Assembly: GCA_003599235.1 (NCBI GenBank)
Contig: QZJE01000013.1
Location: forward strand, 78,536-142,535
Direction of reading: 5' to 3'
Source: Actinomycetota bacterium
GTDB lineage: Bacteria; Actinomycetota; Aquicultoria; SURF-47
Length of the DNA stretch: 64,000 bases
The position numbers and the translations under genes are program-made. Every line of letters begins with the position of its first letter. Within the stretch, counting starts at the first letter, position 1. The notes beneath the pieces were generated by a model. That model worked only from the letters and a program-made list of their open reading frames with translations, was not told where the DNA came from and did not search any database. This document shows, in pieces, positions 34,464 through 63,585 of this stretch.

Positions 34464-34688
34464 TTCTTTTTCAAGACTGTTTCCTGTCTCTTCCTAGACT
34501 GTGGCCTGCTACAACCTAGCTTTCGCTTGTACCCCTATCTACCTGCACTTTTCTTTAAATTTTGCTTGAAACTGTAGGCTAAGACTGCTAAACTATTTGC
34601 GGCGCTATACCCTATTGACAATAATTTTAAACCCTGTAACATAGCCAATTCGGATTTCGTTGTTCGAAAAAACATTAGGAGGAGATTT

Positions 34689-35849: not shown

Positions 35850-35892
35850 TACTAAGGTAGCAGTATTAATCGTAGCAACCTTGGAGGCAAGC

Positions 35893-38091
35893 ATGAAGAA
35901 ACTTTTAGCAGTTATTGTTGTTATTTCGTTGTTATCTTTTCCTTTACACCTGGATGCCATCAGCACCTTTGAAGCAACCCAGTCAGGCTCAGCTAGAACT
36001 GATCTTAATCTAGAGGGTGGCTATGTCGAAGATATCGCCATTGCACCAAACGGCACTATTTATGCCGCTTCTAACTCACCCAATGGAATTTTTGCCTCAA
36101 CTAATGGGGGCGCTTCTTGGCATGGGCCTTCTGGAAACGCCGATATGGGCTCCCCTATCGATGTTGAAGTTGATGGTGCTTCTAATGCTTACGTAATTGC
36201 CGGAATAGACCTTTATAAAACCACTAATAATGGAAGCAGTTGGTCTAAACTAAGTTCAGGCAAAGGCAATTATGATCAAACCATGCTTTATGCTCAAAAT
36301 AAATTATTAGTTCCCTCAAGAGACGGAAGCATTGATTTAAGCTCTAACGGCGGATCATCTTTTTCCAATGTAACTATTGCCTCCGGTCAAAGAATTACAT
36401 CTTTAGCATCATCGCCTACTGCCGGAACTTTTTATGCCCTGGTAGGCAGTGGCACAACCACACTTTACAGCAGTACTGATGGCGGGGCTTCCTGGGCTCC
36501 AACTGGTAAGGCTGGTGATTATTCAGTTGTTGGAGTTAATCAAACTAGTGGCAGGATTGTGCTTGCCGGAAACACAAATGAATATAGCGATAACGGTGGA
36601 GGCGCCTGGTCGTCTATGGGCACAGGAGGTTCAGGACATATTACCTTTAGCTCAAACCGCACTTATATCGGCCCTTCTTGGACTGATAATGATGGTGGAA
36701 CATGGCACAATCTGCAAAACGAAGCAGCAAGCTACACTAGTATTCTAAAAGGTGATAGCTTTGCCGTAGATGGTTCCAATTCCAATATTATGTACATTAA
36801 ATCAGGGCGGGGTATCGCCAAGACAACTGATGGTGGTGCTAACTGGACAGATATCTGCTCTGGGATGACCGGCATTACCGTAAACGATATTAGTCAAGCC
36901 AGAAACAAAAATGTTGTCTGGATAGCCGCTTATGGGGGATTGGCAAGATGTAGTAATTTTACATCTTCCTCTCCTACTTGGACTTTTCCAATTCTGCCTT
37001 CTGTTTCAGTAGACTCAGCTACCTCCGTATGGGTTAATCCCAGCAATACAAATACCGTTCTAGCAGGAGCGCTTCAAAGAATATGGCTGACAACTGATGG
37101 TGGCTCAAGCTGGACTGGGATTGATACCGGCTTAACGGGCGATGTTAAGGATTTTGAAGCCAAATCTGATCTTAGCGTCATTTATGCGGCAGTTGGGGGT
37201 CAAAATGGGGGCGGTGTATTAAAAAGCACCGATGGCGGAGCTAGCTGGTCTAGTGCCGGTCTATCAGGACCGCCAGTAAATACCATTGCCATATCTGGTA
37301 GTTATGTATATGCCGGATGCGGCCGGGAGTTTGCTAGTACTTCTTCAACCCGGGGAATCTATCGTTATAACGGCTCTTCTTGGACACACTTAGCCGATGA
37401 TACCGCCGGCAAACTCATCAACGACCTTTTAGGTGTAGGCAGCACCATATATGCCGCCAGCGGAGAAACAGGCCAGGGAGGAGTGTTTAAATCAACCAAT
37501 AACGGATCCAGCTGGTCTGAGCTTAAGAAGGGTTTGCCAACTGACGGCTGGTTTAAGGCCTTAGCTAGAGAAAGCGGTAGTTCTACTTTATATGTTTCTA
37601 CCAGCCGGCCAGCCGGTACCAGCTATATTTATAAGTCAATGGATGATGGTGCCAGTTGGGGTAAATACTACACTGGCTTAAAAGATGAGGGTTTTAATGC
37701 CTTGCTTTTTGATGCCCTGGTAAGCGGCTCTAATACAGGATTGTTTGCTTACAAATCAAAAGCCATCTTATCCATAGCTAAAAAAGGAAAGATAAAGGGC
37801 AAATCCAGGATAAAGGTTGTGCTCAAAGACAAGGTTACAAAAAAAGCCTTAAGAAACCGCTTGATTAGGCTCTATAAAAAAGTTAAAGTGCGTAAACGCA
37901 TAAAAAAACGCAAAAGATGGGTGTGGGTATGGAGGCTTATAGCAAGAAAAAGAACTAACAAAAAAGGTCTTCTCTACTTTTATATTAGGCCTTCTAAGAA
38001 AACATCTTATAGAACTAAGTGGATTCCTAAATCCAGGAAAGATAAATCCAATTATTTATCAGCGATATCGAAAGCGATTGCGGTTAAGTAA
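35893..38091 (+). CDS. Secreted BNR/Asp-box repeat beta-propeller protein with a hyper-basic C-terminal tail
   Basis: Signal peptide MKKLLAVIVVISLLSFPLHLDA. At least 11 S/T-x-D/N-G-G-x-S/T-W Asp-box motifs (STNGGASW, TTNNGSSW, STDGGASW, TTDGGANW and others). The last ~110 aa include KKVKVRKRIKKRKRWVWVWRLIARKRTNKKG. Confidence 0.75.
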   Translation: MKKLLAVIVVISLLSFPLHLDAISTFEATQSGSARTDLNLEGGYVEDIAIAPNGTIYAASNSPNGIFASTNGGASWHGPSGNADMGSPIDVEVDGASNAYVIAGIDLYKTTNNGSSWSKLSSGKGNYDQTMLYAQNKLLVPSRDGSIDLSSNGGSSFSNVTIASGQRITSLASSPTAGTFYALVGSGTTTLYSSTDGGASWAPTGKAGDYSVVGVNQTSGRIVLAGNTNEYSDNGGGAWSSMGTGGSGHITFSSNRTYIGPSWTDNDGGTWHNLQNEAASYTSILKGDSFAVDGSNSNIMYIKSGRGIAKTTDGGANWTDICSGMTGITVNDISQARNKNVVWIAAYGGLARCSNFTSSSPTWTFPILPSVSVDSATSVWVNPSNTNTVLAGALQRIWLTTDGGSSWTGIDTGLTGDVKDFEAKSDLSVIYAAVGGQNGGGVLKSTDGGASWSSAGLSGPPVNTIAISGSYVYAGCGREFASTSSTRGIYRYNGSSWTHLADDTAGKLINDLLGVGSTIYAASGETGQGGVFKSTNNGSSWSELKKGLPTDGWFKALARESGSSTLYVSTSRPAGTSYIYKSMDDGASWGKYYTGLKDEGFNALLFDALVSGSNTGLFAYKSKAILSIAKKGKIKGKSRIKVVLKDKVTKKALRNRLIRLYKKVKVRKRIKKRKRWVWVWRLIARKRTNKKGLLYFYIRPSKKTSYRTKWIPKSRKDKSNYLSAISKAIAVK

Positions 38092-48800: not shown

Positions 48801-49154
48801 ATGAAAAAGCTGATTAGTGTTTTATTAATCTCTGTTTTTTTATTAGCAGCTTGCGCTTCTGTTACTTCTGCTTACGGCAAAACCCTAAAAGCTACTATGC
48901 CATACAAAAAAAATAGTGGAGTAGTAGTAACACAGTACTGGAAAATGCTGTCGCCTAAAACAGGTAGGTATATATGGGTTCTTATGTCAAAGAGAGCTAT
49001 GAGGTGGTACAAAACAACTAACATTGCTTATTTCCCACGCTGCTCTAAGGGACAGACTTATAGGTTTGTCTACAGACCTAAAACTACCCGTAGACTTCGT
49101 TCTGTAGTTACTAAATGGAATGGAAGAAGTATTGTTAGGTTACCTGGATACTAA
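48801..49154 (+). CDS. Small hyper-basic lipoprotein (stand-alone copy of the basic tail-like module)
   Basis: 117 aa with lipobox LLAAC. The mature part is rich in K/R/Y/W (RWYKTTNIAYFPRCSKGQTYRFVYRPKTTRRLRSVV) and resembles the tails of the 594-aa and 736-aa secreted proteins. Confidence 0.6.
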   Translation: MKKLISVLLISVFLLAACASVTSAYGKTLKATMPYKKNSGVVVTQYWKMLSPKTGRYIWVLMSKRAMRWYKTTNIAYFPRCSKGQTYRFVYRPKTTRRLRSVVTKWNGRSIVRLPGY

Positions 49155-49173: not shown

Positions 49174-49212
49174 AAAAAAATAAAGCCTTCTAAAAGAGGC
49201 TTTATTTTTTTG
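49174..49212. terminator. Bidirectional intrinsic terminator
   Basis: A-run, stem AAAGCCT/AGGCTTT (49182-49188 / 49197-49203), T-run. Lies between convergent genes. Confidence 0.65.
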
Positions 49213-49227
49213 TCTAAGACCTTAGCG

Positions 49228-52200
49228 CTACCTTACAACCAACCAATTACCAGCTATATTATGCTGGTTGTTACAGGCTAGGTCAGTAGCATAGATAAAG
49301 TAACGGTAGGCGCCTTTTCTTAATCTAGCCCTGTACTTGTAATCACTAAGCTTGTTGATGTTTTTTACTCTTAAGTTTAGGATTTTAACGGTCTTCCAAA
49401 CTTTTTTAGCCTTTTTCTTACGGTCTTTTTTAATAATGACCTTTACAATTTTTTTAATTTTTATGGTCACCCTTGCTTTATTATCTGTATAAGGGTCAAT
49501 TACTTTGTATTTTAAAGTGGCTATCTTGCCTTTCTTAACTACTACTTTCTTAAGTGCTCTAGTCCTTGGCTTGGAGTTATCTATTTTGATAATAAAGGTT
49601 GAGGGTTCGCTCCAGTTGCCGTTATTGTCAACTGCTCTTAGGCTGAAATACCACGTTCCGTTACCTAAGCCATTGAATCCTTTAAATATTTCGATACCTT
49701 CGCTTACAGTATCAGCAACACTAAAGGGCGACTTACTTAGGCTATAGCTATAGCCGGCAATTCCTGAAACATCATCAGCAGAGAACAATACAGTAGGATT
49801 GTTATCTTTATAATATCCCGTGTTTGAGAAATGATTAGGACAAGCTATTTTGATATTAGCTGGCGGTTGATTGTCTACTGTATTATTAACTGGATGATTA
49901 TCAACTGGTGGATCTTCCTTAGGAAGCTCTTCTGGTTCTGGTTCAGGCGTAGGAGGAGTAACTTCTCCTTGATACTCATAAGCACCGATGTCTGGAGTAC
50001 CAACTCTAGCATTGCCGTCTTTGTCGGTTGCTGAAGCACCATCTGAGGTGCCTGCATTGATGGCAGGAGAGGTTGCTTGGAGATGGAAATCGTGGTTTGC
50101 ATAATTAGTAAGCTGAGGATCAATTCCTACTTTGCCATGAGCTTCCGGTGGTTGATTCCAAGTTTTCGTAGGATAAGCTAGGTTATAGTCTGCTTGAGCT
50201 GGAATTGAGTTATCTGTATAGGTCCAGCTGCCGCTTTGATAAAAAAGATTATTCTTAATAACCGTTCCAGTCGTTTCCATTCCATTTTGAGCTCTTGTAA
50301 TAATCGAGCCAAAATTCATGTCTATAAAAGTATTATTTAAAAAAGACAGGTTTTGACCAGCCATTAAGTAAAAACCATAAGAACCACATTTTTCAAATAT
50401 ATTATTCTTGATTACTACATTGCTTACAGGTCCACGGTAATTACCGCTTAGCATCATTATCTGATGGCCAATATTGTAAACATAATTGCCCTCGATAAGA
50501 ACATTATCGACCTTGTCAAATGTTTGGAAAGCATCCGTATGTGCAGTTGGTGGTACCTCTGATAAAAGAATGTCATGAATGTAATTGCTTCTAATGATTA
50601 GATTCTTACCAAAAAATCTCAAACCATCTTCATTAAGAGGATGAGAAATATCGTTATCTTCTACTAAGATATCGTAGCCGTGTATCTCTATCCCTTGGCC
50701 ACCGGCATAAGTAATCGTATTGCCCTTAATAATCGAGCCATAAATAGGCGAGATTGTTCCGTAGTCTTGACCAAAAATTGCTTGATACGCAAACCTTATG
50801 CCTGTGGCATTTGTGAAAGTATGGTGAATATAATTATTAATAATCTCTGAGTGACTACTTTGGACCCAAATACCTGACCCATCTCTCCAGTGGTTTAAGG
50901 TATTGGTTATTTCAAAACCCTCAACCCTAATATAGTCTTTTAATAGCGTAAATCCCTTGGTAACTACCACATCATTCTGATAGTTTTTGAAGGTAATTTT
51001 TGACCCTTCAGTGCCGGAATTGGCTGGTATTATGCGCTCATCATAGTTACCTTCTTTGACATAAACAGTATCCCCAGCCTGAACTGTGTTGGCGGCTTTC
51101 TGGATAGTTAAAAAAGGGCTGGTCTCAGAGCCATCATTGCTATCTGAACCGGTCTTGGCTACATAATAGTTTTTCGGCAAGCCTACCTTTATCTGCCTGG
51201 ATAAAACAGCCGACTCATTGCCGGCCGCATCCTTGGCTTTTACTTCAAAGGTGTAACTGCCTCTAGGCAGGCTTGCCAAAACTGCTTTTCCTTGGGTTTG
51301 CCAACTTGACCAAGAATTATTTTGGCCAACTAACCGGTATGAATAAAGTATGCTATTGGCTGTAGTCTCTGCTCTGGTTGAAAGGGAAACATCGTCTGTT
51401 CCGTACCAGCGCATTGTTACATCACTATTATCGGTGGCCAATGTAGCTGTGGGAAAGGTTGCAAGTGATATATCGGGTGCTTGGACATCTGCAGTAGCAG
51501 CTACTCCTTGAATGCTGCTTGTTAATTGGCTGCTATTTATACCTACTCCTTCTAAATACAGTGGAGACCGACCAAAAGTTATTTCTACGCTGTTACCGTT
51601 GACTACTTTGCTTACTTCATTGCCCATTAAGTCATAAGCTTTGATGTTTTCAGAAGATAAATTAAGAGTAATTTTTCGCTTAGAATTATCGTCAGTGCTC
51701 GGATAAATTATCATAAGCGGTGTGGCCAACCGGTTAAAGAGGTAAGCTTTAACATTTGTTCCTAAGTTAACCTCCCCTTGGCCAACTGAACCATCAAAAA
51801 GCTTAGCAAGTACGCTGTAAGCCACTCCTTTTGGCCTCAGAGTCCCATCGTATTCAAAAAGAGAATAAGATATCAAAAAATCTGGAGAAGTTGTATTTCT
51901 GGCATCGTAATAAAAATATTTCTTAAAGCCGGCACCAATACTTTCAGCAAAGTTTTGCACTTGCCATTCGGTTCTTTTACGGTAATCCCTGCCCCAGTCA
52001 GATGGCCTGGCATAGCTAATATCTAAGTTCTCCCACAAAAGAGATTGATAAAAGGTGTCGGTTCTAGCCCCGGTTTCCGAGTTCCAGGCATCTTTATTAG
52101 AGCTGCTTGCTAAACTTAAATAACCTGGTGTGTGTGAGCTGTTCATCGGAGGATAACGGTGAGAAGACCATATATCAGCATAGTTATTGCCAATCGTGTC

Positions 52201-53691
52201 TAGGACGCTTTGGACATAGTTAGTGTAGTAGGCCACCATTCCAACGATGTGAGTATCAGGGTCAGCTCTTTTGGCAGCATCATGGGCTGTTTGCAGTATT
52301 TTAGCGTAATACTGAGGATAGCTTCCTAGCCCACCTTCAGTATCTGGTTCGTTCCAAATCTCCCAGTAATCGACATTATTTTTGTAGTGGTTAACTACTT
52401 GATAGACATAATCATCCCACTTAGCCAAGAAGCCATTAAATGATTCATCGTCCCACTGACTTACATCGCTAGTACCTTTAGGCAGGGCCCAGGTGGGAAT
52501 GTGGGCAACTTCCGAACCGATAGTTCCCATTATTTTCATTCCATATTGTGCCGGCTTTGCTACTTTAGAATCTTGCCAAACAAAGCTATTGTCTGTTGGC
52601 TCGACGTAATACCATCTGAACATTTCTTGGCCGGTACTTAAGCTCCTATTCCATTTAACGCCAACTTTTTGCATCTGGGCTAGCCAGTAATCATAAAAAG
52701 GAACATGGGAACCAAAGATCGAGTTTTCATTGACAGCAGCAGTTTGAGACCTGGGAATTACCGAGTAATTAACCTCTTCTATGGTATCAGGATATCCTTC
52801 TAGCCACAGGATAGCCCTAAAAGCCCCTCGTTTGTTCGGACTTAAATCAAGGTTAGTTGTTGTTAGTGATTGGCCCGCTAAAGAAGAGTTTAGTTCTCCG
52901 GATTTAATTTTTTTATTGTAATAATCATATACTTCGTATTTTGTCTTAACTTCAACTGCTTGACTGTTGTTATAATGAAACAGTTGCATAGAGGCGGCTT
53001 CATCCTCGTAAAATAGATTACCGTCGTGAGAAGAAGATAAGCCAAGTTCGACATCTGAGGACGGATTGTAATCGCTTAAGGAACCTTCTTCTAACCGCAC
53101 AGCGTCTACCCAAACACTTTTGCCAGGGTAACCTTGGTGCTGGGGAATTATTTCAACTTGATACGTTGCTTCGGGATCAGCCACCAGATTACCCGACAAC
53201 GAATATCGTTGCCAGTCGGTTGTTAGATTAAAGCTTGCTTCTTTGTAGTCAAAGCTTCCATCCGCCTGGTTAGTGTTTTCTAGCCTAACTCTTATAGCTC
53301 CATTATTAAGATTGGATTTCATATATAAGGATAAGGTGTGATCTGTGCTGGACCTAACCTTATATATTTTCGAGATTAGTTTCTGGGCATTGTAGTTAGT
53401 ATCGTAGGGAAGCTTTACGCTTTTAGTGCCATGGACAGCCGTTGTGCCATCTATCATAGTTGAAGAAAGCGGAAATTGAACGTTTCCTGAGAGTCCCCAG
53501 CCGTGGCCAGTTCCTACCTCAAAGCTGGAATTTTCTATTAGATTAGGTTTTGAGCCCTCAGCCACTGATTGTTTGATAAAAAAAGTCGATAATGACTGGG
53601 TTAGCAAAGAGCCGATTAAAAGGATGCAGATAATAGCTACTGCTAAGTGGATTTCCTTTATTGTATTTCGCTTTTCAATCATAGAAAACAC
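49228..53691 (-). CDS. Giant secreted multidomain carbohydrate-active protein (1487 aa): CBM4_9-like, GH clan-A-like barrel, Y_Y_Y-like, right-handed beta-helix, Ig-like, hyper-basic C-terminal module
   Basis: GTG start 6 nt after the upstream giant gene. Signal anchor. NLIENSSFE..G..GW (CBM4_9-like). DYWEIWNEPD and AWNSETG (clan GH-A acid/base and nucleophile patterns). YYVAKTGSDSNDGSETSPFLTIQKAA ... DKDGNARVGTPDIGAYEYQG (beta-helix cassette). Pro-rich linker. GYSYSL...GTWYFSLRAVDNNGNWS. The tail is about one third K/R by my count. Confidence 0.8.
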   Translation of the reverse strand: MFSMIEKRNTIKEIHLAVAIICILLIGSLLTQSLSTFFIKQSVAEGSKPNLIENSSFEVGTGHGWGLSGNVQFPLSSTMIDGTTAVHGTKSVKLPYDTNYNAQKLISKIYKVRSSTDHTLSLYMKSNLNNGAIRVRLENTNQADGSFDYKEASFNLTTDWQRYSLSGNLVADPEATYQVEIIPQHQGYPGKSVWVDAVRLEEGSLSDYNPSSDVELGLSSSHDGNLFYEDEAASMQLFHYNNSQAVEVKTKYEVYDYYNKKIKSGELNSSLAGQSLTTTNLDLSPNKRGAFRAILWLEGYPDTIEEVNYSVIPRSQTAAVNENSIFGSHVPFYDYWLAQMQKVGVKWNRSLSTGQEMFRWYYVEPTDNSFVWQDSKVAKPAQYGMKIMGTIGSEVAHIPTWALPKGTSDVSQWDDESFNGFLAKWDDYVYQVVNHYKNNVDYWEIWNEPDTEGGLGSYPQYYAKILQTAHDAAKRADPDTHIVGMVAYYTNYVQSVLDTIGNNYADIWSSHRYPPMNSSHTPGYLSLASSSNKDAWNSETGARTDTFYQSLLWENLDISYARPSDWGRDYRKRTEWQVQNFAESIGAGFKKYFYYDARNTTSPDFLISYSLFEYDGTLRPKGVAYSVLAKLFDGSVGQGEVNLGTNVKAYLFNRLATPLMIIYPSTDDNSKRKITLNLSSENIKAYDLMGNEVSKVVNGNSVEITFGRSPLYLEGVGINSSQLTSSIQGVAATADVQAPDISLATFPTATLATDNSDVTMRWYGTDDVSLSTRAETTANSILYSYRLVGQNNSWSSWQTQGKAVLASLPRGSYTFEVKAKDAAGNESAVLSRQIKVGLPKNYYVAKTGSDSNDGSETSPFLTIQKAANTVQAGDTVYVKEGNYDERIIPANSGTEGSKITFKNYQNDVVVTKGFTLLKDYIRVEGFEITNTLNHWRDGSGIWVQSSHSEIINNYIHHTFTNATGIRFAYQAIFGQDYGTISPIYGSIIKGNTITYAGGQGIEIHGYDILVEDNDISHPLNEDGLRFFGKNLIIRSNYIHDILLSEVPPTAHTDAFQTFDKVDNVLIEGNYVYNIGHQIMMLSGNYRGPVSNVVIKNNIFEKCGSYGFYLMAGQNLSFLNNTFIDMNFGSIITRAQNGMETTGTVIKNNLFYQSGSWTYTDNSIPAQADYNLAYPTKTWNQPPEAHGKVGIDPQLTNYANHDFHLQATSPAINAGTSDGASATDKDGNARVGTPDIGAYEYQGEVTPPTPEPEPEELPKEDPPVDNHPVNNTVDNQPPANIKIACPNHFSNTGYYKDNNPTVLFSADDVSGIAGYSYSLSKSPFSVADTVSEGIEIFKGFNGLGNGTWYFSLRAVDNNGNWSEPSTFIIKIDNSKPRTRALKKVVVKKGKIATLKYKVIDPYTDNKARVTIKIKKIVKVIIKKDRKKKAKKVWKTVKILNLRVKNINKLSDYKYRARLRKGAYRYFIYATDLACNNQHNIAGNWLVVR

Positions 53692-53697
53692 TTTTTT

Positions 53698-56600
53698 CTA
53701 CCTTACAACCAACCAATTACCAGCTATATTATGCTGGTTGTTACCGGCTAGGTCAGTAGCATAGATATAGTAGCGGTATTTGCCTTTTCTAAGTTTTACT
53801 CTTAGCTTTTTAATGGAGATTTTATTAATGGGCTTGAGCCCTAGTCTTAGGACTTTAACTATTCTTTTGCCTCTTTTAATCTTGATTATTATTCTGGCCT
53901 TGTTGTTAGTATATGGATCTATTACTTTGTACCTAAGAGCAGCTAGCTTGCCCCGTTTAACCATTATTTTTCTAAGCGCTTTAGTCTTTGGCTTGTAGTT
54001 ATCTAGTTTTATGCTCTGAGACTGGATGCTGATATTGCCGGCATTGTCTACTGCTTTAATGGTTAAGTTGCATTCACCATTAAGCTTAGATGAGTTCCAA
54101 ATAAAAGAGCTAGAGGCAAGCGAGTAATAATTAGGACCAAAAGAGAAGCTGTGAATATCTTGATTGTTGCATTGTAGAGTTACTTCTTTTACTTTAGACA
54201 AACCATCACTAGAATTAACCCAGAGATCGATTAGTCCTTTGTATATCCTGTTGTCATCAATATTGCCTAAGCTTACCTGGGGAGCGGTGGTATCTATCAT
54301 TATCTTTTGATGGGTAGTCTCTGATGCATTGCCTTTGGTGTCTATGGCTTTTAGGTGAAAATACCAAATACCATCAGAGAGATTACTAAACTGCTTATTG
54401 CTAGCTGTTTGGTCTATTTCATTATCCGGATGTGTTGTCTCAACTTTATCTATTTCATAACTGTAACCGGCAACACCAGAATCATCAGATGAAGAGAAAC
54501 TAAATGAGGGGCTTCTGTCTGCATAATATCTTGAGCCTAATTGATGAGTGTTGCAGGTAACCTCTGGCTTTGCTGGTGGTGCGATATCAATTGCCGGCGG
54601 AGATGAAATCTCTTCGCTTGTACCTGTGGGAACATAGCTTGTGTCGTTAGTAATAAGTAGCTTATCTAGATAAGTGCTAGCTTCTCTTCCTCTAATAGTT
54701 AGGGTATGGGTACCAGTTGTTAGGTTAAAGAGTTTGGGATCATATTCAGGTGCTACAGGACTACCGGCGCCTCTTAAACAAACTCTATCCCAAGTCCAGT
54801 TAGATGAGTTCTCGGCTAGTAAAACATCCCAAACATCTTCCGGCAAACCATCTACTGTGATAAACACTGAGTCATTACCGGTTGTAGGGGCAATAACTCT
54901 GCCCCATATCAGATAATTACCCGCAGTTGTTACATTGAATTTGTAGATAGCCGTTCCTTGATTAGTTGTTGATGAGGATGTATAGCTTCCACCGGAGGCT
55001 AGAACATCGCTCCTTTCTGTCATGGGAGCTGCTAGAGCTCCATTTTCAGCCTCTAACCACAGATATTCATTATCACCCGATTGAACTGAGTTACTCACAT
55101 AAATGCTAATGGACTGTTCTGCTGTATTATTCGACGAATCATAAGCAACAACTTTTATAGTATGATTACCATTGGAAACAGAACTTGTGTCTAAGGCATA
55201 GCTGTATAGTGAAGAGGTGTCTTCTCCTGCTTTTATGCCGTCAACTAAAAACTCTACTTTTGATACTGCTGCGTCATCACTGGCATCAGCAATAATATCA
55301 ACTGTTCCAGAAACTTCTGCGTCACCAGTTGGATTAGTTATTGAAACCGTTGGGTTAGTTAAATCTGTAGTAGGTGTTCCCTGATATTCATACGCTCCAA
55401 TATCAACCGCTCCCACTCTGGGATTGCCGTCTTTGTCTTTATCCGGTGCCCCATCAGAGGTACCGGCATTGATTGCAGGTGAAGTTGCTTGGAGATGGAA
55501 ATCTCTAGCTAGGTAATCTGAATTATTAATATCTACAAATTTAGGATCTGCCCATATACTATGAGTTTGATTATGTGTTGTAGGAGTGCCACCTGGAACA
55601 TAAAACAAATTATAATCAACGTCAAAGAACTGATTTTGGTATGGGTCCCAACTGTCACCATAAAAAATATTATTTTTAAAAACGCCACTGGGATCTCCTG
55701 CATGAGAGGCCCAGCTTGCATCTCTAGTATCATAAATCCTTATTCCATATTGACCGTTGGCAAATACATTATTCATTACAGTCAAATCTTCGCCGCCCAT
55801 TCTGACATGGTAATTTCCGCCGCCTGAGAAAACATTTCCAATTAGTTTTAATCTGTCCACTTGTACATAGATTCCTAAATGTGAGCCGTCTTTGCCAGGA
55901 TTGCCTATAAACAAATTATTGCTGACTTCATTATCAGAAGCATACATTTGAATAGCGTCTGCGTGAGCAGGTGATATCGCATCAATATCGTGAAAGTAAT
56001 TATTCTGAATTATATTATTGGTTTCAGTGCTATCTATCCAAATGCCGTCTTCTACGTCATAGATTTCATTTCCTTCAATAATAAAGTTTGTGCAAACCCT
56101 CGACAGATCTACTCCTTTACCACTTGGGTGAGTAGTATCTGTTGCCGCTTCATAATTAGCTCGTCCAATTTTATTGTCTTTTACTAAGCAATTTGTGCTT
56201 TCTTGGAACTTAATAGAGAAAGCTCCGCCGGGACTTGGACCATCAGTATCATGGATATCATTGTTAACAATTTCCACTCCAGTGTGAGGGTTAGAATGAT
56301 AGGCGTACGAATTAGTAGTGATGGCAGCAGGATAGCAGTTTTTTATTTCAAACCCTTCGATTCGGATATAGCTGCTGTCTCCATCTAGATAGAAACCTCT
56401 ATTTGTTTTGTTATTATCAATTATTGGTTTTTCCCCGGGAAAATTCTTGAAAGTGATCATATTGCCAGGCGTTCCTGTCTTAGTTAGAGTGACTGTTTCA
56501 CTATAAGTTCCACCTCTTACATAAACAGTTTTTCCAGCGGTAGCAACATCAGCACCTTTTTGGATGGTGCGGTAAGGATTCGTTGTTGTGCCATCACCGG

Positions 56601-59600
56601 TTGTATCATTACCGGTAGTAGAGACATAAATTGCATTAGGGTCTGAGCCTTGATATTCATAAGCTCCGATAGTTGGCGGGTCAGAACGAGTATTGCCTTC
56701 GTAGTCAGCTGTTACTCCACTAATAGCGATACCGGCTCCGATAAGAGGACTGCCAGACAACGGTTTGAAATTTGAATCTATTAAAGGATCAACATTCCAT
56801 TGGTTATACGTACCTGCAGCATAAACAGCGTCTGGGCTACTGGTACATGGCCAAGCAAGATTATAATCAGTCGTCCAATTACTTATTCCGCCCGCATCCA
56901 TAAACGGTTTATGCACTGATGACCACCCGGGCTGATTGCCGTTTCTAATGAGAACATTATTCTTGGCTGTAACTGTTGCCGGACCATTAGTTGCGTATGT
57001 GTTAATAGCTGAATTTGCCACATTATGCAGGTAATTATTGTAGACTTCCACTGTGCCGGAAGTTACGGTTATAGAGCCGGCTGCCTCTTCGATAACATTA
57101 TTGCGAATAATATAGGAAATTGTCTTACCGGTAGCTTGCGCTAACATTGCAAATGCGCCATTAAAATCGTACATGTGGTTATTTTCAATAATGCCACCGC
57201 CATCTCCACCTAAGGCTTGCTGCAGGCAATCCATGTGGGGACTGCCCCCAGTCCCGGTATTTTCACTATCGAGATAATCGTGAAATGTATTGTTGGCTAT
57301 ATAAACACTCTCCCCGGAGTTATCAATGGCATCAGTATCCTCTACAAAGGCACTATTTACTATAGATTGACCGTGACTGAAATCGCAATTGGTAACAGTG
57401 CCATTATCTCCCCATATTTCCAGCGCATCAGAGTAATTATAAGAAAAAGTACAGCCGGTTACAGTGAGGTTAGAGACGTTTTGTGCAGATGATACATTGC
57501 TAGATCTAACACCTCCCTTGGGGCAGTGATGAATGTTGCAGTTTTTAATAGTTACGTAAGCGCCATTCAGAGCTATTCCGGCATCAGCATTGACCTGTGA
57601 TATACGTCTGGTTGCTTGAATATCAAAACCGTCGATTGTAATACGGTCGCATGGAATACTTGTTCTGCCGATAAGAAAACCTTTTGTTAATGGCATCCCC
57701 ACACCCTTAAAGGTTATTCCTTGCGTCAAACCGGATTTGAGTAAAGCAACCCGTCCTGCGTAAGCTGAATCTCCATTGCAGGGATAAGTTGTAGGTGCCG
57801 GGTCGTCCCTATAGTCCCCGGGACCAACTTGAATAGTATCGCCGTCTTGAACAACCCCTGCCTCTATTGCATAAGCTGCTTTTTGGATGGTTAGAAATGG
57901 CTCGGCCTCCGTGCCTGGGTTAGAATCAGAACCTGTTTTGGCTACATAGTAAGTCTTTGGTTGATACTCGAAGGCCCCTATGTCGGGTGCTCCAACTCTC
58001 TCATTACTGTCTTTATCAGTTGCTGGGGTATTAGCATCAGAGATGCCAGCATTAATAGCCGGAGAAGTTGCTCCAATATGATAGTTTTTGGCACTGGTAC
58101 TTACAAATTTAGGATCTAAATTCCAAACCTTATGTGCTTCTTGTTGCGACATTAAGGGTGGATTGGATAAATCAACCGGATAGTAAAGATTATTGTCTGC
58201 CTCTTGAATAAAACTTTGATTTATAGTGTAGGGCAGATGACCGCCATTGTTGAAAACCTCTCCGTTGTTCTTATAAAAAATATTATTCTTTATTACCGCA
58301 TGGTCGCAGGGATGACCAACAGCATTGCTGCCATTATCCCACTCTGCAATATAGATATCTGAAACTTTTGCATTAATAAACGTGTTGTTAACGAACGTCA
58401 GATAAGGCACATTGTATATCGTAAACCCATTATAAATTTCACTAATAGCTCCCTCAAAGACATTATTTCTAAAAGTAAGGTGATCTACATGGTGCTCAAT
58501 GTCCTGCCAATCCTTATATCCTCCAGTTATCTGAGCCCATTGAACTTGAGCATCATGGACATAATTTCCTTCAAAGATAATATTGCTTGCATCAGAAAAA
58601 GTTTGAAAAGCGTCTATGTGGGGTGCAGAATCGGGATTGTCAGACAACCAATAATCGTGGATGTTCTCATTTCTAATAATATGCCCTGTTCCTGAAAAGC
58701 GGTGAGCATCAGTATCTGAGCTGTTAACAGCTTGGCCTTGATACTTAACACGCCCATGAGAAAGATCGTTTCCTTCTACTAGCCAATTACTCCCGCCAAC
58801 CTCAATAGCAGAGTTGCAATGGTTTGTGATTGTATTATTCTTGATAATATTTCCGACAGGTTCGTTTGAACAATCATACATTGCTCCAATACCATTCCAA
58901 CGAATATCGTGAATATAGTTGTTTTCAATAACGTTATTACTTCCGTTGATTGTAATGCCCCACCGATCATAATAATCTGGAGGTGTTTGGGTAATTTCAA
59001 AACCTTTAATTTTGATATATGAAGTTAATGCACTCCGGGTTGGGCCTATAGTGAAACCTTGAGTAACAGGCTTATCGTCACCAGGAAATCCCTCAAAAGT
59101 AATATAGTTTTCAGCCTGACCCGATACACTTAACTTAATCCTCTCATTATAAGTCCCTTCTTTCACATAAACAGTATCTCCAGCTTGGGCTACGTTAGCT
59201 GCTTTTTGAATTGTCAGCCAGGGTTGGCTTTGCGTGCCTGGGTTAGAATCAGAGCCTGTTTTGGCGACATAATAAGTAGCTGGTATTCGATTAACAGTGA
59301 CAGTTACAGCATTGCTTTCTATTCCATTAGCAGAAGCTTTAACATCGTAATTATCAGGAACTATGTTATTAAACAGCCCAAACTCGTTGGCGCCTGACCA
59401 GGTAAAGGTAATCCCAGGTATTTCATTATCTGAAACATCATAACCTTTAGCACTAAATAAAATGGTATCTCCAGAATCAATAGTCTGAGGAGCTGATGGT
59501 GTTATTTCTATATGGTTGAGAATAGGTGACGGATTAAGAACCTCATTAACGGTTTTTACTTCTATCTCAGGATGGTTATTCTTGATTTCTGAGACAATAC

Positions 59601-62600
59601 TTTGAAAAGTAGCCACTTTAGCGACATCATCTGGAGCTTCGTGCTGGAATATCAACCAGCCACCATTGGCCTCAATTTCCGCCAATTTAGTCTGGACCGT
59701 GCCAAGAGAAGCGTAGGTAAGACCAGTTATTTTGAGATTATATTTATTGTTAACAGGAAACGTGTTAGTGCCGTAACTGCAAACGTTATAATCATGATTG
59801 CTTTGTACAATAGCATTAAGCGCATCTATATCAAGGGCATTAACATGAGAGAAGCCTAGGTTTGAAAAACCATTAGCAACTAGCCAATTTTTAGCCTCTT
59901 CTACTTGAAATTGATAATTAGCTACTCCCCCCGATAGGTTATTAGCTGAATGAGAGCCAATTTCCCAACCAGCAGCCTGTAATGTTTGCAGATTGGTAGT
60001 GCTTAGCCTGGTTGAGGTAGAATTAATAAGAGCCGTATCTACGTAGGTTACACCTTTGTAGCCGGCTGCGCTTAAAATGGGATAATAATCATCTATCTGA
60101 GCTTTATTGTTATCAGTGAAAGTAAAAGAAACTACCGGCTTATCCGAGGTAGCTCCACCACTACTACTGTTATTTACAGTCACCGTAATGGCTGATGTTT
60201 CAGTGGCATTGCCCGCAATGTCATAAGCTTTAGCTTTGATAGTATGACTTCCGTTAGTAGCAGTTGAGGAATTCCAGCTATAGCTATATGGAGAAGCGTT
60301 ATCGGAATTGGCTACACTGTCATCTATTAAGAACTCTACTTTTTCTACTCCTGAGCCACCATCATTATCAGCGGCTGTAGCGCTTAAACTAACGCTACCT
60401 GAGACTGTTGCTGCATCAGAAGGCGCAGTTAAAGTTACTGTTGGGTTAATAGCCTCTTGTGAAGAACTACCAGACTGTTTTTCTCCGGTTACTACCTCCA
60501 ACACTGTTTTTACCGGAATTCCTTTAGCTTTAACCTTAGCTATTACTTCTTCAAAAATTTCTACCTTATCAGCTGTGTGAGCATCATCCATCCACCCGTG
60601 ATCAGCAAAGATAATCCACTTTTTTTGTTCTGTAGCATTTGTTAAATAAGTTTCAATATTGTTCATCTTTTGCAATCTTGCTGCTTCATTATTTGCTTGC
60701 TTAATCGGATCAGGATCAGGCGGATTTGTAGATGTAATATCTATTCCTACAGCACCAAGGTTATAAGAATCTGTTACTGGTAGACTGTTATACACAGTAG
60801 AAACTTTACGATTATAGGGATGATAACTCTCAACAAGAGGATCTAGTACTTCGTTAGTTCTAGTAAAGGGAGCCGCAAATCCAGGATTGGAAAATCCTTT
60901 AGAAATTAACCAATCTTTAGCATCGCTAATAGTCGGCAAATAATCCTCGGCAGTATAGGATCTATCATCACCATTGGCGTCTTTTAATGCAGGCCAGTGG
61001 TTGGTAGTATGGGAACTTATTTCCCAGCCAGCGGTCTTCATTTGGTTAAGCTGGCTCAAACTTAATTTATCGCTATTACCTACACTGCCGGTAATAGCAT
61101 AGACTACCCCCGGGTAATTCTCGGCATTAAGTGCCGGAAAATAATTGTATTGCTCTTTATTTGAATCATCAAAAGTAAAAGAGACAATTGGGCCGTTTTG
61201 GACAATAAGCGATACAGAGTCCTCGGCACTGTTTCCAGACTTGTCATAGGCCTTAATTTTAATAATATGCTTTTTGGCCGTATCGACAGTTGTAGAATCC
61301 CAAGTAAAGCTGTACGGCTTAGATATGTCGGTATCTTTTAATTCATCATTAACATATAGCTCTGCCTTATCTAGCTCGGAGTCTCCCTCATTATCGCTTG
61401 CATCAGCGTTGATAGTGACATTGCCGGCAACCGGCGCATTATCAGCCGGGCTTGTTATAGAAACTGCAGGGTCAATGGTATCAGCAGCTGTGTAGTCTGA
61501 TATATCAATAACCGCCATGCTCATTGGCGGCATAGAAACAGAAAAAGAACCACCACTAATACTAGCACTTGAGCTTATCGGAGTCTGAGTAGAAAGAGCG
61601 CTCCAATCATTGTATGAGTTTATATTGGCTGTTCCATTCTTTACTCCATCCAGATTAACGGTTATATTATGAATATTGCTAACGCTCTTGTTTAGTAACA
61701 ATATTTTATAGTTACCAGCAGTGTCTTTTGTTGCTAAGCTCTCAACTCTTTTAGCCTTGCCAAGTAATGTGGGATGAGTCTCTTGACCCCCAGAACTTTG
61801 ATATAAAACACTTGGCTTATCATCTGTTGTCACATTGGATGATAAAACCTGACGGCTAGAAGAATTGAAGCTACTTAAAACCTTCATGGCATATCCCATG
61901 GAAGTTATTTGACGAGTTGGCGAAATTAGCTCATCTGTATCAGAGCCGGCGAAGATATCCCAAAATGTATTGGCTTTAACTCCTACATTGGCGGTTTTAG
62001 AAATAACACTGGTGAAATAAATTGCCTTCCAAATATCAGTAGAGTTAGGCTCTTGATTAGTATTTGTGGGATAATGATACTGGCCTAAACCATCGTAGTT
62101 AAACTCGGTACACAAAAGATCAATATTAGGTTTGCCAAAATCAGCAAGTTTTTGCTGAACAGTATATGGTTCTTGGCCCTCCCATTTATAAGTGCCATCA
62201 TATTTATAAGTAGAATCCACTATTGCTTGCTTAGCTTGATCATCATTAGTAATCCCAGAAAAATTCCTAGGACTTCCTCCGAAACTGTACGCATGATAGG
62301 CAAAGAAGTCAGCGTTATATGAGGGATTAGAATAAATTGTCGAGTATGGTTCATACCCATACTCTTGAACTCCGATAGCTTTAGACCCTTGGCCAGCTGG
62401 AAAAGGGCCTACTTTTATATCGGGGGTAAGAGATTTTATGGCTTCATATGCTTTTTTATAGAGATTTTTGTAAAGCGTCATATCTTCAGCAATGTCCCTT
62501 ATATATAAATAATCACCAAATCCACTTACATTTGCAGTTTCATTAAATGCTATCGATTGAGTAGTTTGATCTGCGATATAATTTGAATACCTTGTTGAGC

Positions 62601-63426
62601 CCGTAGGAAAAGTTGGTTTGATAGCAACCGCTGACCATTCCGTATAATTATTAATCTCGGTTACCACTTGACCATAACTTCGAGAAGAACCATCAGAGTT
62701 GAGTAAATTGACTGTATGTTCAACTTGCCAGCCAGAGCTATTACGTTCTAAGTAAAGGTAATCGCCCTCTACTCTTACTCTTCTACTATAGCTTGCATCT
62801 TCATTGGTTACTGTAAAATGAGGATTAACATTATTATTCGTTAAGGGTTTATAAAAAACAGGCGGCCTTTGGATGCCTTCCATAGGAGCAATGTCTATTT
62901 CGTTGCCAATTTCGACATATTTTACGTTCACTCCCTGATCGACCAGATATTTGATTAAATTAGACCAAGCATAAGCTACTTCATCTAGGTTTAGTGATCC
63001 GTCAGGATTTAACATGGCCGTACTAATCTCGTCATTTAAGGTATAGAGAATCGGCATGTTAAGATCTTTCCACCAAGCAATCTGGTTATTTATCGATCCT
63101 TCAGTCCCTGTATCCCAATTCCAAACGCCATGAGCCGGATAAAGCTCTTCCATATTAATGCGTACTTTTTGACCATGGCCAGCCCGCATTAATGACAACC
63201 CTGCCTGGTTAATAAGAGCATTATTTTCATCTTTTGGCCAAAAGCTTCCTGCCCCCCAAGGGGAAAGATTTCCACCCAAAAGATCATTGCTAAAAGTGCT
63301 GACAACAGTATTAGAGATGTTGACTGTCGATGTTTGGATATCAGCATTTGAGTGAGCAATAAAAAGGTAAGATAAAGAATTAGTTAAAAGAGCACCTATT
63401 AAGAAGATGCAGATGAATACCACCAA
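53698..63426 (-). CDS. Giant secreted multidomain carbohydrate-active protein (3242 aa): GH clan-A-like barrel, 2 CE4-like modules, Big_2, 3 right-handed beta-helix cassettes, CBM-like, several Ig-like modules, hyper-basic C-terminal module
   Basis: Single uninterrupted ORF. VEIGNE ... LLCTEFNY (GH-A-like). SFTFDDS/SHTTNH and SFTFTDN/SHSANN (NodB-like). Three cassettes each open with (Y/I)YV(A/S).TG.D and close with GN.R....(D/T)IGA(Y/F)EYQ. EYLWLEAENG CBM-like module. GYSYEID...DGIWYFHLKAIDTKGNAS. By homology to the paralog the real start is probably ATA/ATC at 63474/63477. Confidence 0.8.
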   Translation of the reverse strand: MVVFICIFLIGALLTNSLSYLFIAHSNADIQTSTVNISNTVVSTFSNDLLGGNLSPWGAGSFWPKDENNALINQAGLSLMRAGHGQKVRINMEELYPAHGVWNWDTGTEGSINNQIAWWKDLNMPILYTLNDEISTAMLNPDGSLNLDEVAYAWSNLIKYLVDQGVNVKYVEIGNEIDIAPMEGIQRPPVFYKPLTNNNVNPHFTVTNEDASYSRRVRVEGDYLYLERNSSGWQVEHTVNLLNSDGSSRSYGQVVTEINNYTEWSAVAIKPTFPTGSTRYSNYIADQTTQSIAFNETANVSGFGDYLYIRDIAEDMTLYKNLYKKAYEAIKSLTPDIKVGPFPAGQGSKAIGVQEYGYEPYSTIYSNPSYNADFFAYHAYSFGGSPRNFSGITNDDQAKQAIVDSTYKYDGTYKWEGQEPYTVQQKLADFGKPNIDLLCTEFNYDGLGQYHYPTNTNQEPNSTDIWKAIYFTSVISKTANVGVKANTFWDIFAGSDTDELISPTRQITSMGYAMKVLSSFNSSSRQVLSSNVTTDDKPSVLYQSSGGQETHPTLLGKAKRVESLATKDTAGNYKILLLNKSVSNIHNITVNLDGVKNGTANINSYNDWSALSTQTPISSSASISGGSFSVSMPPMSMAVIDISDYTAADTIDPAVSITSPADNAPVAGNVTINADASDNEGDSELDKAELYVNDELKDTDISKPYSFTWDSTTVDTAKKHIIKIKAYDKSGNSAEDSVSLIVQNGPIVSFTFDDSNKEQYNYFPALNAENYPGVVYAITGSVGNSDKLSLSQLNQMKTAGWEISSHTTNHWPALKDANGDDRSYTAEDYLPTISDAKDWLISKGFSNPGFAAPFTRTNEVLDPLVESYHPYNRKVSTVYNSLPVTDSYNLGAVGIDITSTNPPDPDPIKQANNEAARLQKMNNIETYLTNATEQKKWIIFADHGWMDDAHTADKVEIFEEVIAKVKAKGIPVKTVLEVVTGEKQSGSSSQEAINPTVTLTAPSDAATVSGSVSLSATAADNDGGSGVEKVEFLIDDSVANSDNASPYSYSWNSSTATNGSHTIKAKAYDIAGNATETSAITVTVNNSSSGGATSDKPVVSFTFTDNNKAQIDDYYPILSAAGYKGVTYVDTALINSTSTRLSTTNLQTLQAAGWEIGSHSANNLSGGVANYQFQVEEAKNWLVANGFSNLGFSHVNALDIDALNAIVQSNHDYNVCSYGTNTFPVNNKYNLKITGLTYASLGTVQTKLAEIEANGGWLIFQHEAPDDVAKVATFQSIVSEIKNNHPEIEVKTVNEVLNPSPILNHIEITPSAPQTIDSGDTILFSAKGYDVSDNEIPGITFTWSGANEFGLFNNIVPDNYDVKASANGIESNAVTVTVNRIPATYYVAKTGSDSNPGTQSQPWLTIQKAANVAQAGDTVYVKEGTYNERIKLSVSGQAENYITFEGFPGDDKPVTQGFTIGPTRSALTSYIKIKGFEITQTPPDYYDRWGITINGSNNVIENNYIHDIRWNGIGAMYDCSNEPVGNIIKNNTITNHCNSAIEVGGSNWLVEGNDLSHGRVKYQGQAVNSSDTDAHRFSGTGHIIRNENIHDYWLSDNPDSAPHIDAFQTFSDASNIIFEGNYVHDAQVQWAQITGGYKDWQDIEHHVDHLTFRNNVFEGAISEIYNGFTIYNVPYLTFVNNTFINAKVSDIYIAEWDNGSNAVGHPCDHAVIKNNIFYKNNGEVFNNGGHLPYTINQSFIQEADNNLYYPVDLSNPPLMSQQEAHKVWNLDPKFVSTSAKNYHIGATSPAINAGISDANTPATDKDSNERVGAPDIGAFEYQPKTYYVAKTGSDSNPGTEAEPFLTIQKAAYAIEAGVVQDGDTIQVGPGDYRDDPAPTTYPCNGDSAYAGRVALLKSGLTQGITFKGVGMPLTKGFLIGRTSIPCDRITIDGFDIQATRRISQVNADAGIALNGAYVTIKNCNIHHCPKGGVRSSNVSSAQNVSNLTVTGCTFSYNYSDALEIWGDNGTVTNCDFSHGQSIVNSAFVEDTDAIDNSGESVYIANNTFHDYLDSENTGTGGSPHMDCLQQALGGDGGGIIENNHMYDFNGAFAMLAQATGKTISYIIRNNVIEEAAGSITVTSGTVEVYNNYLHNVANSAINTYATNGPATVTAKNNVLIRNGNQPGWSSVHKPFMDAGGISNWTTDYNLAWPCTSSPDAVYAAGTYNQWNVDPLIDSNFKPLSGSPLIGAGIAISGVTADYEGNTRSDPPTIGAYEYQGSDPNAIYVSTTGNDTTGDGTTTNPYRTIQKGADVATAGKTVYVRGGTYSETVTLTKTGTPGNMITFKNFPGEKPIIDNNKTNRGFYLDGDSSYIRIEGFEIKNCYPAAITTNSYAYHSNPHTGVEIVNNDIHDTDGPSPGGAFSIKFQESTNCLVKDNKIGRANYEAATDTTHPSGKGVDLSRVCTNFIIEGNEIYDVEDGIWIDSTETNNIIQNNYFHDIDAISPAHADAIQMYASDNEVSNNLFIGNPGKDGSHLGIYVQVDRLKLIGNVFSGGGNYHVRMGGEDLTVMNNVFANGQYGIRIYDTRDASWASHAGDPSGVFKNNIFYGDSWDPYQNQFFDVDYNLFYVPGGTPTTHNQTHSIWADPKFVDINNSDYLARDFHLQATSPAINAGTSDGAPDKDKDGNPRVGAVDIGAYEYQGTPTTDLTNPTVSITNPTGDAEVSGTVDIIADASDDAAVSKVEFLVDGIKAGEDTSSLYSYALDTSSVSNGNHTIKVVAYDSSNNTAEQSISIYVSNSVQSGDNEYLWLEAENGALAAPMTERSDVLASGGSYTSSSTTNQGTAIYKFNVTTAGNYLIWGRVIAPTTGNDSVFITVDGLPEDVWDVLLAENSSNWTWDRVCLRGAGSPVAPEYDPKLFNLTTGTHTLTIRGREASTYLDKLLITNDTSYVPTGTSEEISSPPAIDIAPPAKPEVTCNTHQLGSRYYADRSPSFSFSSSDDSGVAGYSYEIDKVETTHPDNEIDQTASNKQFSNLSDGIWYFHLKAIDTKGNASETTHQKIMIDTTAPQVSLGNIDDNRIYKGLIDLWVNSSDGLSKVKEVTLQCNNQDIHSFSFGPNYYSLASSSFIWNSSKLNGECNLTIKAVDNAGNISIQSQSIKLDNYKPKTKALRKIMVKRGKLAALRYKVIDPYTNNKARIIIKIKRGKRIVKVLRLGLKPINKISIKKLRVKLRKGKYRYYIYATDLAGNNQHNIAGNWLVVR

Positions 63427-63585
63427 TAAATGAATTTCTTTAACTGTCTTTCTTTGCTCTAATACAGAAAATATGATCGGCTCCTTTTATTTACTAACCC
63501 TTTGCTTTACTATCGGCAAATAACTATCAATTCTTAAAAATAAGCTAGCCGGATAATTAAGCGCCCACACTTTCATCTATCTTTA

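Follow-up and report, generated by a model that had tools for sequence, protein, structure and literature searches.

What is a strongly cationic domain doing at the very end of giant secreted proteins? The question is raised by two adjacent genes, here called A and B, in a 64,000-nucleotide stretch of DNA from an Actinomycetota bacterium (contig QZJE01000013.1, positions 78,536 to 142,535, assembly GCA_003599235.1). The whole stretch is called the window in what follows. Both proteins terminate in a short tail exceptionally rich in lysine and arginine (K/R), which is best filed as an undescribed, lineage-restricted, strictly C-terminal cationic immunoglobulin (Ig)-like module. The module is real, widespread and unannotated; its function we infer. 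The features of the A-B locus (lengths in amino acids, aa) are the following.

53698 to 63426, minus strand: gene A, 3242 aa; acidic, secreted, multidomain protein bearing the basic module at its C-terminus
49228 to 53691, minus strand: gene B, 1487 aa; secreted protein bearing the basic module at its C-terminus
53701 to 54009, minus strand: basic Ig-like module of A, residues 3140-3242, 103 aa (KLDNYKPKT...NWLVVR), net charge about +27
49231 to 49587, minus strand: basic Ig-like module of B, residues 1369-1487, 119 aa (KIDNSKPRT...NWLVVR), net charge about +31
approximately 49390 to 49452, minus strand: lysine-rich insertion in the B module (...KIVKVIIKKDRKKKAKKVWKT...), placed by alignments and strand positions
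53698 to 53766, minus strand: final ~22 codons and stop of gene A, compared codon by codon with gene B
49228 to 49296, minus strand: final ~22 codons and stop of gene B, near-identical partner of the preceding segment
63343 to 63477, minus strand: N-terminal export signal region of A (…IFSVLEQRKTVKEIHLLVVFICIFLIGALLTNSLSYLFIAHSNA), homologous to the N-terminus of B
53560 to 53691, minus strand: N-terminal export signal region of B (MFSMIEKRNTIKEIHLAVAIICILLIGSLLTQSLSTFFIKQSVA)
49174 to 49203, minus strand: terminator-like hairpin and T-run of the intrinsic type, immediately 3' of gene B, found by direct reading of the sequence

Two basic tails and the genes that carry them

A first-pass annotation of this DNA had proposed that the ends of the two proteins are homologous, that about one third of their residues are K/R, and that acidic residues are few. 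All this is borne out. The last 200 aa of A and B are 55% identical (BLASTP, E 4e-39), well above what chance would produce. The last 97 aa of A include 29 K/R and 2 aspartate or glutamate residues (D/E), with an isoelectric point (pI) of 11.5, the last 114 aa of B 36 K/R and 5 D/E, with a pI of 10.8, and K/R account for 30-32% of the tails. The positions proposed at the time were correct, the coding strand being the minus one: many stops interrupt the plus-strand translation of the tail bases, and the minus-strand translation reproduces the peptides that had been quoted. The boundaries had to be corrected instead, since a hidden Markov model (HMM) and the structural model place them slightly further out, as listed above. 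By HMM, the A module corresponds to residues 3160-3262 of the stop-to-stop open reading frame (ORF). The B module is the top match (P0001) of the profile search described below, covering profile positions 1-119 at the C-terminus. Relative to A, it carries an extra basic insertion of 16-17 residues within the hairpin joining strands 4 and 5. The lysine-rich insertion is found also in other family members of low guanine plus cytosine (GC) content (P0002-P0005, P0008).

The tails are extreme within the window. Sliding segments of 100 aa, drawn from 41 ORFs (n=15,693), have a mean net charge of -0.3 (standard deviation 6.7), and the peak values are +28 in the A tail and +31 in the B tail. A net charge of at least +22 per 100 aa is reached in just five proteins of the window, each time at the C-terminal end, and all five have signal peptides; for cytoplasmic proteins encoded in the window the values lie between -12 and +16. 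The charge of the tails is opposite to that of the remainder of the proteins. The pI of the whole protein is 4.8 for A and 6.1 for B, the body of A has a net charge of about -170, and the bodies of both carry -2.7 to -5.3 charges per 100 aa. Pfam and NCBIfam scans assign to A polysaccharide deacetylase, right-handed beta-helix/DUF1565, choice-of-anchor Q, Big_7, Big_13 and Big_3_3 domains; B features beta-helix/DUF1565, Y_Y_Y, choice-of-anchor Q and OmpL47-type domains, and a weak GH10 match. The name of the choice-of-anchor Q family reflects its occurrence with alternative C-terminal anchors.

Genes A and B probably form a single operon, because the gap between them is only 6 nt, and the predicted terminator downstream of B would mark the end of the A-B transcription unit. 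The start of A is probably misplaced. The homology between the N-termini of the two proteins (IFSVLEQRKTVKEIHL / MFSMIEKRNTIKEIHL) reaches upstream of the first ATG/GTG/TTG of A (63427-63495, minus strand), and in the same interval, upstream of the listed TTG, an AAGGAG Shine-Dalgarno-like site is found 6 nt ahead of an ATC-ATA pair. On these grounds, the true initiation codon of A is probably non-canonical and precedes the listed TTG by about 17 residues. The 3' ends of the genes are also peculiar. DNA identity is 97-100% over the final ~22 codons and the stop, and 47-87% in the remainder of the module, a pattern suggesting either that the 3' ends of these neighbours underwent local gene conversion recently, or that they are very strongly constrained.

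A C-terminal family with an Ig-like fold

A word-index search with the single A tail returned no match, and the family emerged only by an exhaustive profile search with the two tails against 1.84 billion proteins. It comprises at least 559 cluster representatives (50% identity) at E<=1e-3, and 63 at E<=1e-10. A scan of genome contigs with a profile built on 9 close tails provided 80 genome loci, to which 80 metagenome loci were added. The position of the module is nearly invariant. In 137 of the 150 best representatives it ends at most 5 aa from the C-terminus, the exceptions being mainly giant repeat proteins which match the generic C-terminal motif only. Among ORFs from the genome loci, about 88 of 95 have the module flush with the stop codon, and among those from the metagenome loci 85 of 88. 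When full-length modules are pooled, 309/324 end within 3 aa of the C-terminus, and no protein has more than one copy. In the rare copies that are not terminal, the module precedes a short extension of low complexity, which resembles the outcome of read-through or frameshift; P0068 may be the one genuine exception. The giant proteins P0011, P0026, P0038 and P0128 (4456-6906 aa) match only the C-terminal half of the module (G-x-Y...ATDxAGN), and do so internally 10-16 times. The motif is therefore common to ordinary Ig-like repeat arrays, and the full basic module is terminal only.

Positive charge is a family trait. Among the 150 representatives, the median pI is 10.85 for the tail (minimum 9.8) and 4.7 for the body. 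Over 237 pooled modules, tails have a median net charge of +18, as against -4 in the 100 aa that lead up to them and -5 in the next 100 aa towards the N-terminus. The bias is present both in arginine-rich and in lysine-rich lineages (median tail charge +18 and +14, respectively), and is therefore not an effect of GC content. Tails from the genome loci are all net positive (at least +3); the family as a whole spans +3 to +34, and the window tails are near the upper extreme. Charge is also maintained at specific columns. Columns 19, 45, 52 and 79 are K/R in 82-86% of the sequences, and the terminal residue is K/R in 96%. Between the K/R columns lie those of the core, with 94-100% hydrophobic residues, and such alternation implies that the basic side chains would face the solvent, covering both sheets of the sandwich. 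Conserved acids are solely D3, D31 and D86, adjoining the ATDxAGNxQ motif. These three invariant aspartates and the motif are probably structural (an interdomain or Ca2+ site), rather than part of a binding surface.

The first-pass annotation had predicted a beta-sandwich, reminiscent of FlgD-Ig or other Ig-like domains. Modelling of the isolated tail supports the fold, and profile searches support the likeness, though below curated cut-offs only. The AlphaFold model of the A tail, obtained from a 53-sequence alignment, is an eight-strand beta-sandwich of high confidence (predicted local distance difference test, pLDDT, 94; predicted template modelling score, pTM, 0.84). The best Pfam match of the A tail is Big_13 (PF19077), at 13.6 bits (E 0.097) against a gathering cut-off of 27 bits; a Big_13 match was not found for the B tail in a Pfam scan at E<=10, and the window tails do not match FlgD_ig (PF13860) even at this threshold. 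Neither the A tail, nor the B tail, nor any family tail (n=53) reaches a Pfam or NCBIfam cut-off. Sub-threshold Pfam matches among the 53 family tails are nonetheless frequent, and involve Big_13 (48/53, best E 1.3e-5), Y_Y_Y (25/53), DUF4625 (22/53) and FlgD_ig (15/53, best E 3e-6); in NCBIfam, they involve the OmpL47-type model NF047446 (24/53) and FlgD (7/53).

Structural comparisons point in the same direction. Foldseek against the PDB retrieved generic Ig-like sandwiches only, namely CARDB (3idu, E 5.6e-4, template modelling (TM) score 0.57), complement MG and V-set Ig domains, with TM scores in the 0.5-0.65 range, and no close structure appeared among the top 50 matches. A search of the PDB by sequence profile ranked the GspB Siglec-like domain first (E 3.3e-4, over profile positions 3-95), and also found the BIg domain of SiiE (2yn3). 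Since profile matches are only sub-threshold, and structural matches only generic, the tail is, as modelled, a divergent, unannotated family inside the bacterial Ig-like (E-set) fold. No confident match to a described anchoring or sorting family was found in the Pfam, NCBIfam and PDB profile searches.

The module shares with Big_13, FlgD_ig, Y_Y_Y, DUF4625, OmpL47-type and SiiE BIg domains a beta-sandwich of ~100 aa. Common to the module and bacterial Ig-like domains are also the G-x-Y-x-[FYW]-x-V-x-A-x-D-x-A-G-N pattern in the last strands and a D-x-x-x-P start at the domain junction. Unlike these domains, the module is strongly cationic, is neither repeated nor internal, and coincides with the end of the protein, with a conserved K/R. 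The GspB Siglec-like domain (PDB 5iuc, 6efa, 3qc5) has in common with it the Ig-type fold, the DxxxP start and the ATDAAGN motif. This domain recognises sialylated glycans through the arginine of a YTRY motif, and is internal and not hyper-basic. The E value is however marginal, and the YTRY arginine falls on column 80, an aromatic core column in the module family.

The proteins to which the module is attached are diverse, and all plausibly exported. Passenger regions, analyzed in 79 family members, belong to extracellular-type families only. They include Peptidase_S8 with fervidolysin prodomain, Peptidase_C1, M36, TIG, BNR/sortilin/YCF48-like propellers, FG-GAP, LVIVD, CARDB, PKD and cadherin-like domains, and CBM96 in one member. 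Of the 84 ORFs that are complete, in the sense that no contig end truncates them, 65 have signal-peptide-like N-termini by a crude heuristic. The other 19 either are stop-to-stop ORFs of high GC content, whose start is ambiguous, or are fragments produced by frameshifts, and none is recognisably cytoplasmic. Cytoplasmic carriers lacking a signal peptide, which would have contradicted the role of surface anchor suggested at first pass, were thus not encountered.

The family is found almost only in uncultured Actinomycetota. All 80 genome loci derive from metagenome-assembled genomes (MAGs) of this phylum, mostly labelled Thermoleophilia, and a genome may host several loci, as MFD00032.bin.2.59, with five loci and seven modules. 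Module genes may be arranged in tandem, five in L063 (302-12871), and three each in L033 (8417-13828) and L053 (419-6508). Some tails of tandem arrays have diverged much further (36-47 bits) and carry less positive charge (+3 to +7). The closest relative of the window tail resides in a subtilase encoded by a metagenome contig of 46% GC (L081; 51% identity). No neighbour gene is conserved around the 80 genome loci, the maximum being a GAF-HD protein at 14/80 loci. The search for a partner gene near the module yielded only scattered housekeeping synteny (SelA/SelB/SelD-like AIR synthase-related proteins, GAF-HD, ABC ATPase), and this candidate association was rejected. One orthologous group of module genes is adjoined by genes for SelA, SelB and a SelD-like AIR synthase-related protein (L033 14043-19064, L006 12041-13549, and ~8-10 other loci); adjacency to selenocysteine genes is probably plain synteny rather than a functional link. 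Phage and plasmid collections gave no match in a tblastn search with one high-GC family member, and we found in the literature no description of this C-terminal module.

Proposed surface retention and competing explanations

How may the proteins be held at the cell surface, if at all? As anticipated at first pass, A and B feature no sortase (LPXTG), SLH or LysM signal in Pfam, NCBIfam and regular expression scans. No window ORF contains an LPXTG-like motif or a C-terminal transmembrane signal according to regular expressions, Gram_pos_anchor does not match A or B, and both proteins end in ...IAGNWLVVR, without a hydrophobic segment. SLH, LysM, CWB2, GW, WxL, choline-binding and SLAP domains are all missing in Pfam scans, at E<=0.01 for full-length A and B and at E<=10 for the tails. 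Likewise, NCBIfam gives no match to PEP-CTERM, GlyGly-CTERM, PGF-CTERM or MYXO-CTERM for A, B or the 53 family tails, and A and B have no C-terminal transmembrane helix. A panel of small C-terminal sorting domains of the PEP-CTERM type is described in a preprint (bioRxiv 10.1101/2023.06.07.544157).

Other genes of the window that bear on the issue are the following.

35881 to 38091, plus strand: BNR/sortilin-like propeller, 736 aa; signal peptide; hyper-basic C-terminal ~100 aa, net charge +38 to +40
23469 to 25253, minus strand: BNR_4 and PKD protein, 594 aa; signal peptide; hyper-basic C-terminal ~100 aa, net charge +26 to +28
48801 to 49154, plus strand: lipoprotein-like protein, 117 aa; signal peptide; hyper-basic C-terminal ~100 aa, pI 11, net charge +22
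7421 to 9868, plus strand: membrane protein, 815 aa; ~400-aa hydrophobic N-terminal part followed by an extracellular sulfatase-superfamily domain

The first three genes encode the additional proteins with basic C-termini. The possibility that these are divergent copies of the module was rejected, since no homology was detected by HMM, BLASTP, hhalign or phmmer; nor are they detectably homologous to each other. The single-sequence AlphaFold model of the tail of the 736-aa protein has a pLDDT of 44, too low to be informative. Because basic C-termini recur on non-homologous tails of signal-peptide proteins of the same window, the three unrelated tails suggest convergent use of charge, charge itself being the selected property.

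We favour the hypothesis that the module is an electrostatic, non-covalent surface-retention domain, and give it about an even chance of being correct. The proposal rests on the column-specific, GC-independent charge, on the acidic nature of the passengers, on the lack of other anchors, and on the presence of unrelated basic C-termini in the window. It rests also on the predicted exposure of the charged columns to the solvent, and on the strict C-terminal position. According to this hypothesis, proteins bearing the module would attach to the surface after export by the Sec pathway. The cationic outer faces of the sandwich would then adhere electrostatically to a polyanionic component of a monoderm envelope, candidate ligands being lipoteichoic acid, the anionic head groups of lipids, or a wall polymer similar to teichoic or teichuronic acid. 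The body of the protein, be it an enzyme or an adhesin, would be kept at the cell surface without a covalent link, and in this lineage the module would take the place of LPXTG, SLH or LysM-type anchors.

Non-covalent anchors of a comparable kind exist elsewhere. The GW modules of Listeria InlB and Ami, and the related staphylococcal autolysin repeats, are basic C-terminal domains ensuring non-covalent surface retention via lipoteichoic acid; GW modules are SH3-like, tandemly repeated, and found in Bacillota. The module differs from them, as neither A and B nor the tails match GW in Pfam. Electrostatic anchoring has a functional precedent in Lactobacillus S-layer proteins (SlpA/SA, CbsA, SlpB), in which a basic cell-wall-binding region of ~125 aa binds teichoic acids by a mechanism proposed to be electrostatic (PMC3666127). 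This region may be N- or C-terminal, consists of two repeats, and replaces SLH domains (PMC3666127). Like the module, it is ~100-125 aa long, has a high pI, and is joined to a functional part of different charge. The two are however not related in sequence, given that Pfam scans of A, B and the tails reveal no match of SLAP type. The combination that defines electrostatic anchors, a high-pI domain on an acidic or neutral exported protein, is found in the window proteins, with tails at 10.8-11.5 and bodies at 4.8-6.1.

A number of observations weigh against surface retention. No gene for an anionic wall polymer, teichoic acid included, was identified within the window, and the membrane-bound sulfatase-family protein (7421-9868, 815 aa) is not assignable to LtaS. 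Charge varies from +3 to +34 among family members, and electrostatics alone may not explain the weakly charged ones. The known modules for non-covalent wall binding occur also at positions other than the exact C-terminus. Near-absolute C-terminal placement, together with a terminal K/R, is more typical of sorting signals, and the exact placement fits a sorting signal at least as well as a binding module. The type of envelope is itself deduced from the WhiA/RapZ synteny and from UvrC relatives at <=53% identity. Finally, the ligand could be external to the cell.

The module may alternatively be a true C-terminal sorting or processing domain, read by a dedicated machinery, and maybe cleaved, or serving to transfer the cargo, in analogy with LPXTG/sortase or with the C-terminal domains (CTDs) of the type IX secretion system (T9SS). 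We consider this explanation unlikely, though location at the exact C-terminus in ~95% of cases, presence in one copy per protein, diversity of the cargo, occurrence of several cargoes per genome, and K/R as the terminal residue in 96% of the sequences are what one would expect of a sorting domain. The cargoes A and B bear, in addition, choice-of-anchor Q domains. The module resembles T9SS CTDs in several respects. Both are single beta-sandwiches, similar in size, with which Sec-exported proteins end, and both have very diverse cargo and many cargoes per genome. T9SS CTDs are not notably basic, however, and there is no sequence match: TIGR04183 and TIGR04131 were absent from NCBIfam scans of the window tails and of the 53 family tails (E<=1-10), and T9SS CTDs are not among the top 50 Foldseek matches. 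The terminal position (309/324) is that of a T9SS substrate, but the hosts are not Bacteroidota or FCB-type bacteria, since 80/80 loci are from Actinomycetota MAGs. Actinomycetota are generally monoderm, and are not known as T9SS hosts. The lack of a conserved neighbour gene at the 80 genome loci (GAF-HD, the top family, is found at 14) does not support the existence of a dedicated machinery encoded nearby. No tail reaches an NCBIfam cut-off, and sorting models gave only single matches at chance level (PorU sortase, 1/53, E 0.0088). A sorting domain would moreover leave unexplained the unrelated basic tails on other secreted proteins of the window. In a variant of this explanation, rather unlikely in our opinion, the module would be the recognition domain of a new sorting or attachment pathway of monoderm Actinomycetota, a cationic C-terminal 'address tag' whose reader, an enzyme or a receptor, would be encoded elsewhere.

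An external ligand is central to another hypothesis, which also seems unlikely. The module could target substrates, like a carbohydrate-binding module (CBM), and bind external polyanions (pectate or uronic-acid polysaccharides, extracellular DNA, humic or mineral surfaces) rather than the producer cell. In its favour are the beta-helices of A and B, which are pectate-lyase-like, their polysaccharide deacetylase domains, the CBM96 of one family member, and the glycan-binding nature of the GspB Siglec-like domain, the solved structure closest in sequence. Yet this match is marginal, and the arginine that binds the glycan in GspB maps, as said, to a core column of the module. The module is found also on proteases (S8, C1, M36), beta-propellers and adhesin-like repeats, for which no common substrate can be recognised, and CBMs are not restricted to the exact C-terminus.

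According to a simpler explanation, the module is only a terminal structural Ig-like domain, and its charge has no binding role, and may for example offset an acidic passenger, or help folding or solubility. Kinship with common Ig-like repeats (Big_13, OmpL47-type, SiiE-like BIg), the shared xDxAGN motif, and the many matches of P0011, P0026, P0038 and P0128 to the C-terminal half of the module go along with this. The explanation is nevertheless improbable: the neighbouring 100 aa, frequently Ig-like, have a negative median net charge, positive charge is kept column by column across GC regimes, the full-length module is neither internal nor repeated, and a +27 tail is too small to offset a body of about -170. 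That cationic tails bind in trans the acidic bodies of the same or neighbouring proteins, to self-assemble into an extracellular coat or matrix, would agree with the charge asymmetry of each protein (+27 to +31 in the tail, -2.7 to -5.3 per 100 aa in the body) and with the tandem arrays of module-bearing genes, but is highly improbable, as no evidence of self-assembly motifs was found, and the passengers are too diverse to provide a common docking surface.

Host lineage, remaining features and meaning

The window has a GC content of 40.5%. On the minus strand, between 38156 and 48677, the gene order is uvrC, ogt-like methyltransferase, rapZ, whiA, gap, pgk, tpiA, iPGM, cysS, and no yvcK-like gene was found between rapZ and whiA. 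In a collection of 5.8 billion sequences no other protein exceeds 53% identity with the UvrC of the window, a distance which indicates a poorly sampled lineage. Among the top matches of this UvrC, most of the named relatives are either 'Actinomycetota bacterium' MAGs or Ca. Aquicultor; Firmicutes, Clostridia and other phyla account for a few. Judging from the uvrC-ogt-rapZ-whiA-gap-pgk-tpi-pgm synteny and from the UvrC relatives, the host is probably a deep-branching, monoderm lineage.

The architecture of the 815-aa membrane protein is reminiscent of polymer- or lipid-modifying enzymes of the LtaS/EptA type. Its identification as LtaS is unsupported, as Pfam recognises a sulfatase only, and NCBIfam matches to arylsulfatase and phosphoethanolamine-transferase models are far below threshold. 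One more gene of the window encodes a cell-wall enzyme.

34908 to 35774, plus strand: Amidase_3 (N-acetylmuramoyl-L-alanine amidase) gene; its stop-to-stop ORF begins at 34578 and encodes a signal-like N-terminus

The gene is probably longer than listed. The C-terminal ~150 aa of the protein are made up of a linker rich in Pro and Ala and of an unassigned, beta-rich domain, which is not basic (net charge -5).

Members of the module family are at present labelled 'hypothetical protein', or mislabelled FlgD, and the family is a candidate new entry for Pfam and NCBIfam. Being compact and confidently modelled, the module is also a candidate tag for surface display. The strict C-terminal rule and the terminal K/R make the alternative between anchor and sorting signal directly testable. 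The carrier MAGs are mostly labelled Thermoleophilia, the window deriving from a low-GC relative, and in these lineages the module would allow surface proteins to be recognised from sequence. If the favoured hypothesis is true, the module would be the main surface-display route of a large group of uncultured Actinomycetota from soil, sediment and bioreactors, and the displayed proteins would include proteases, glycan-active enzymes and giant adhesin-like proteins.

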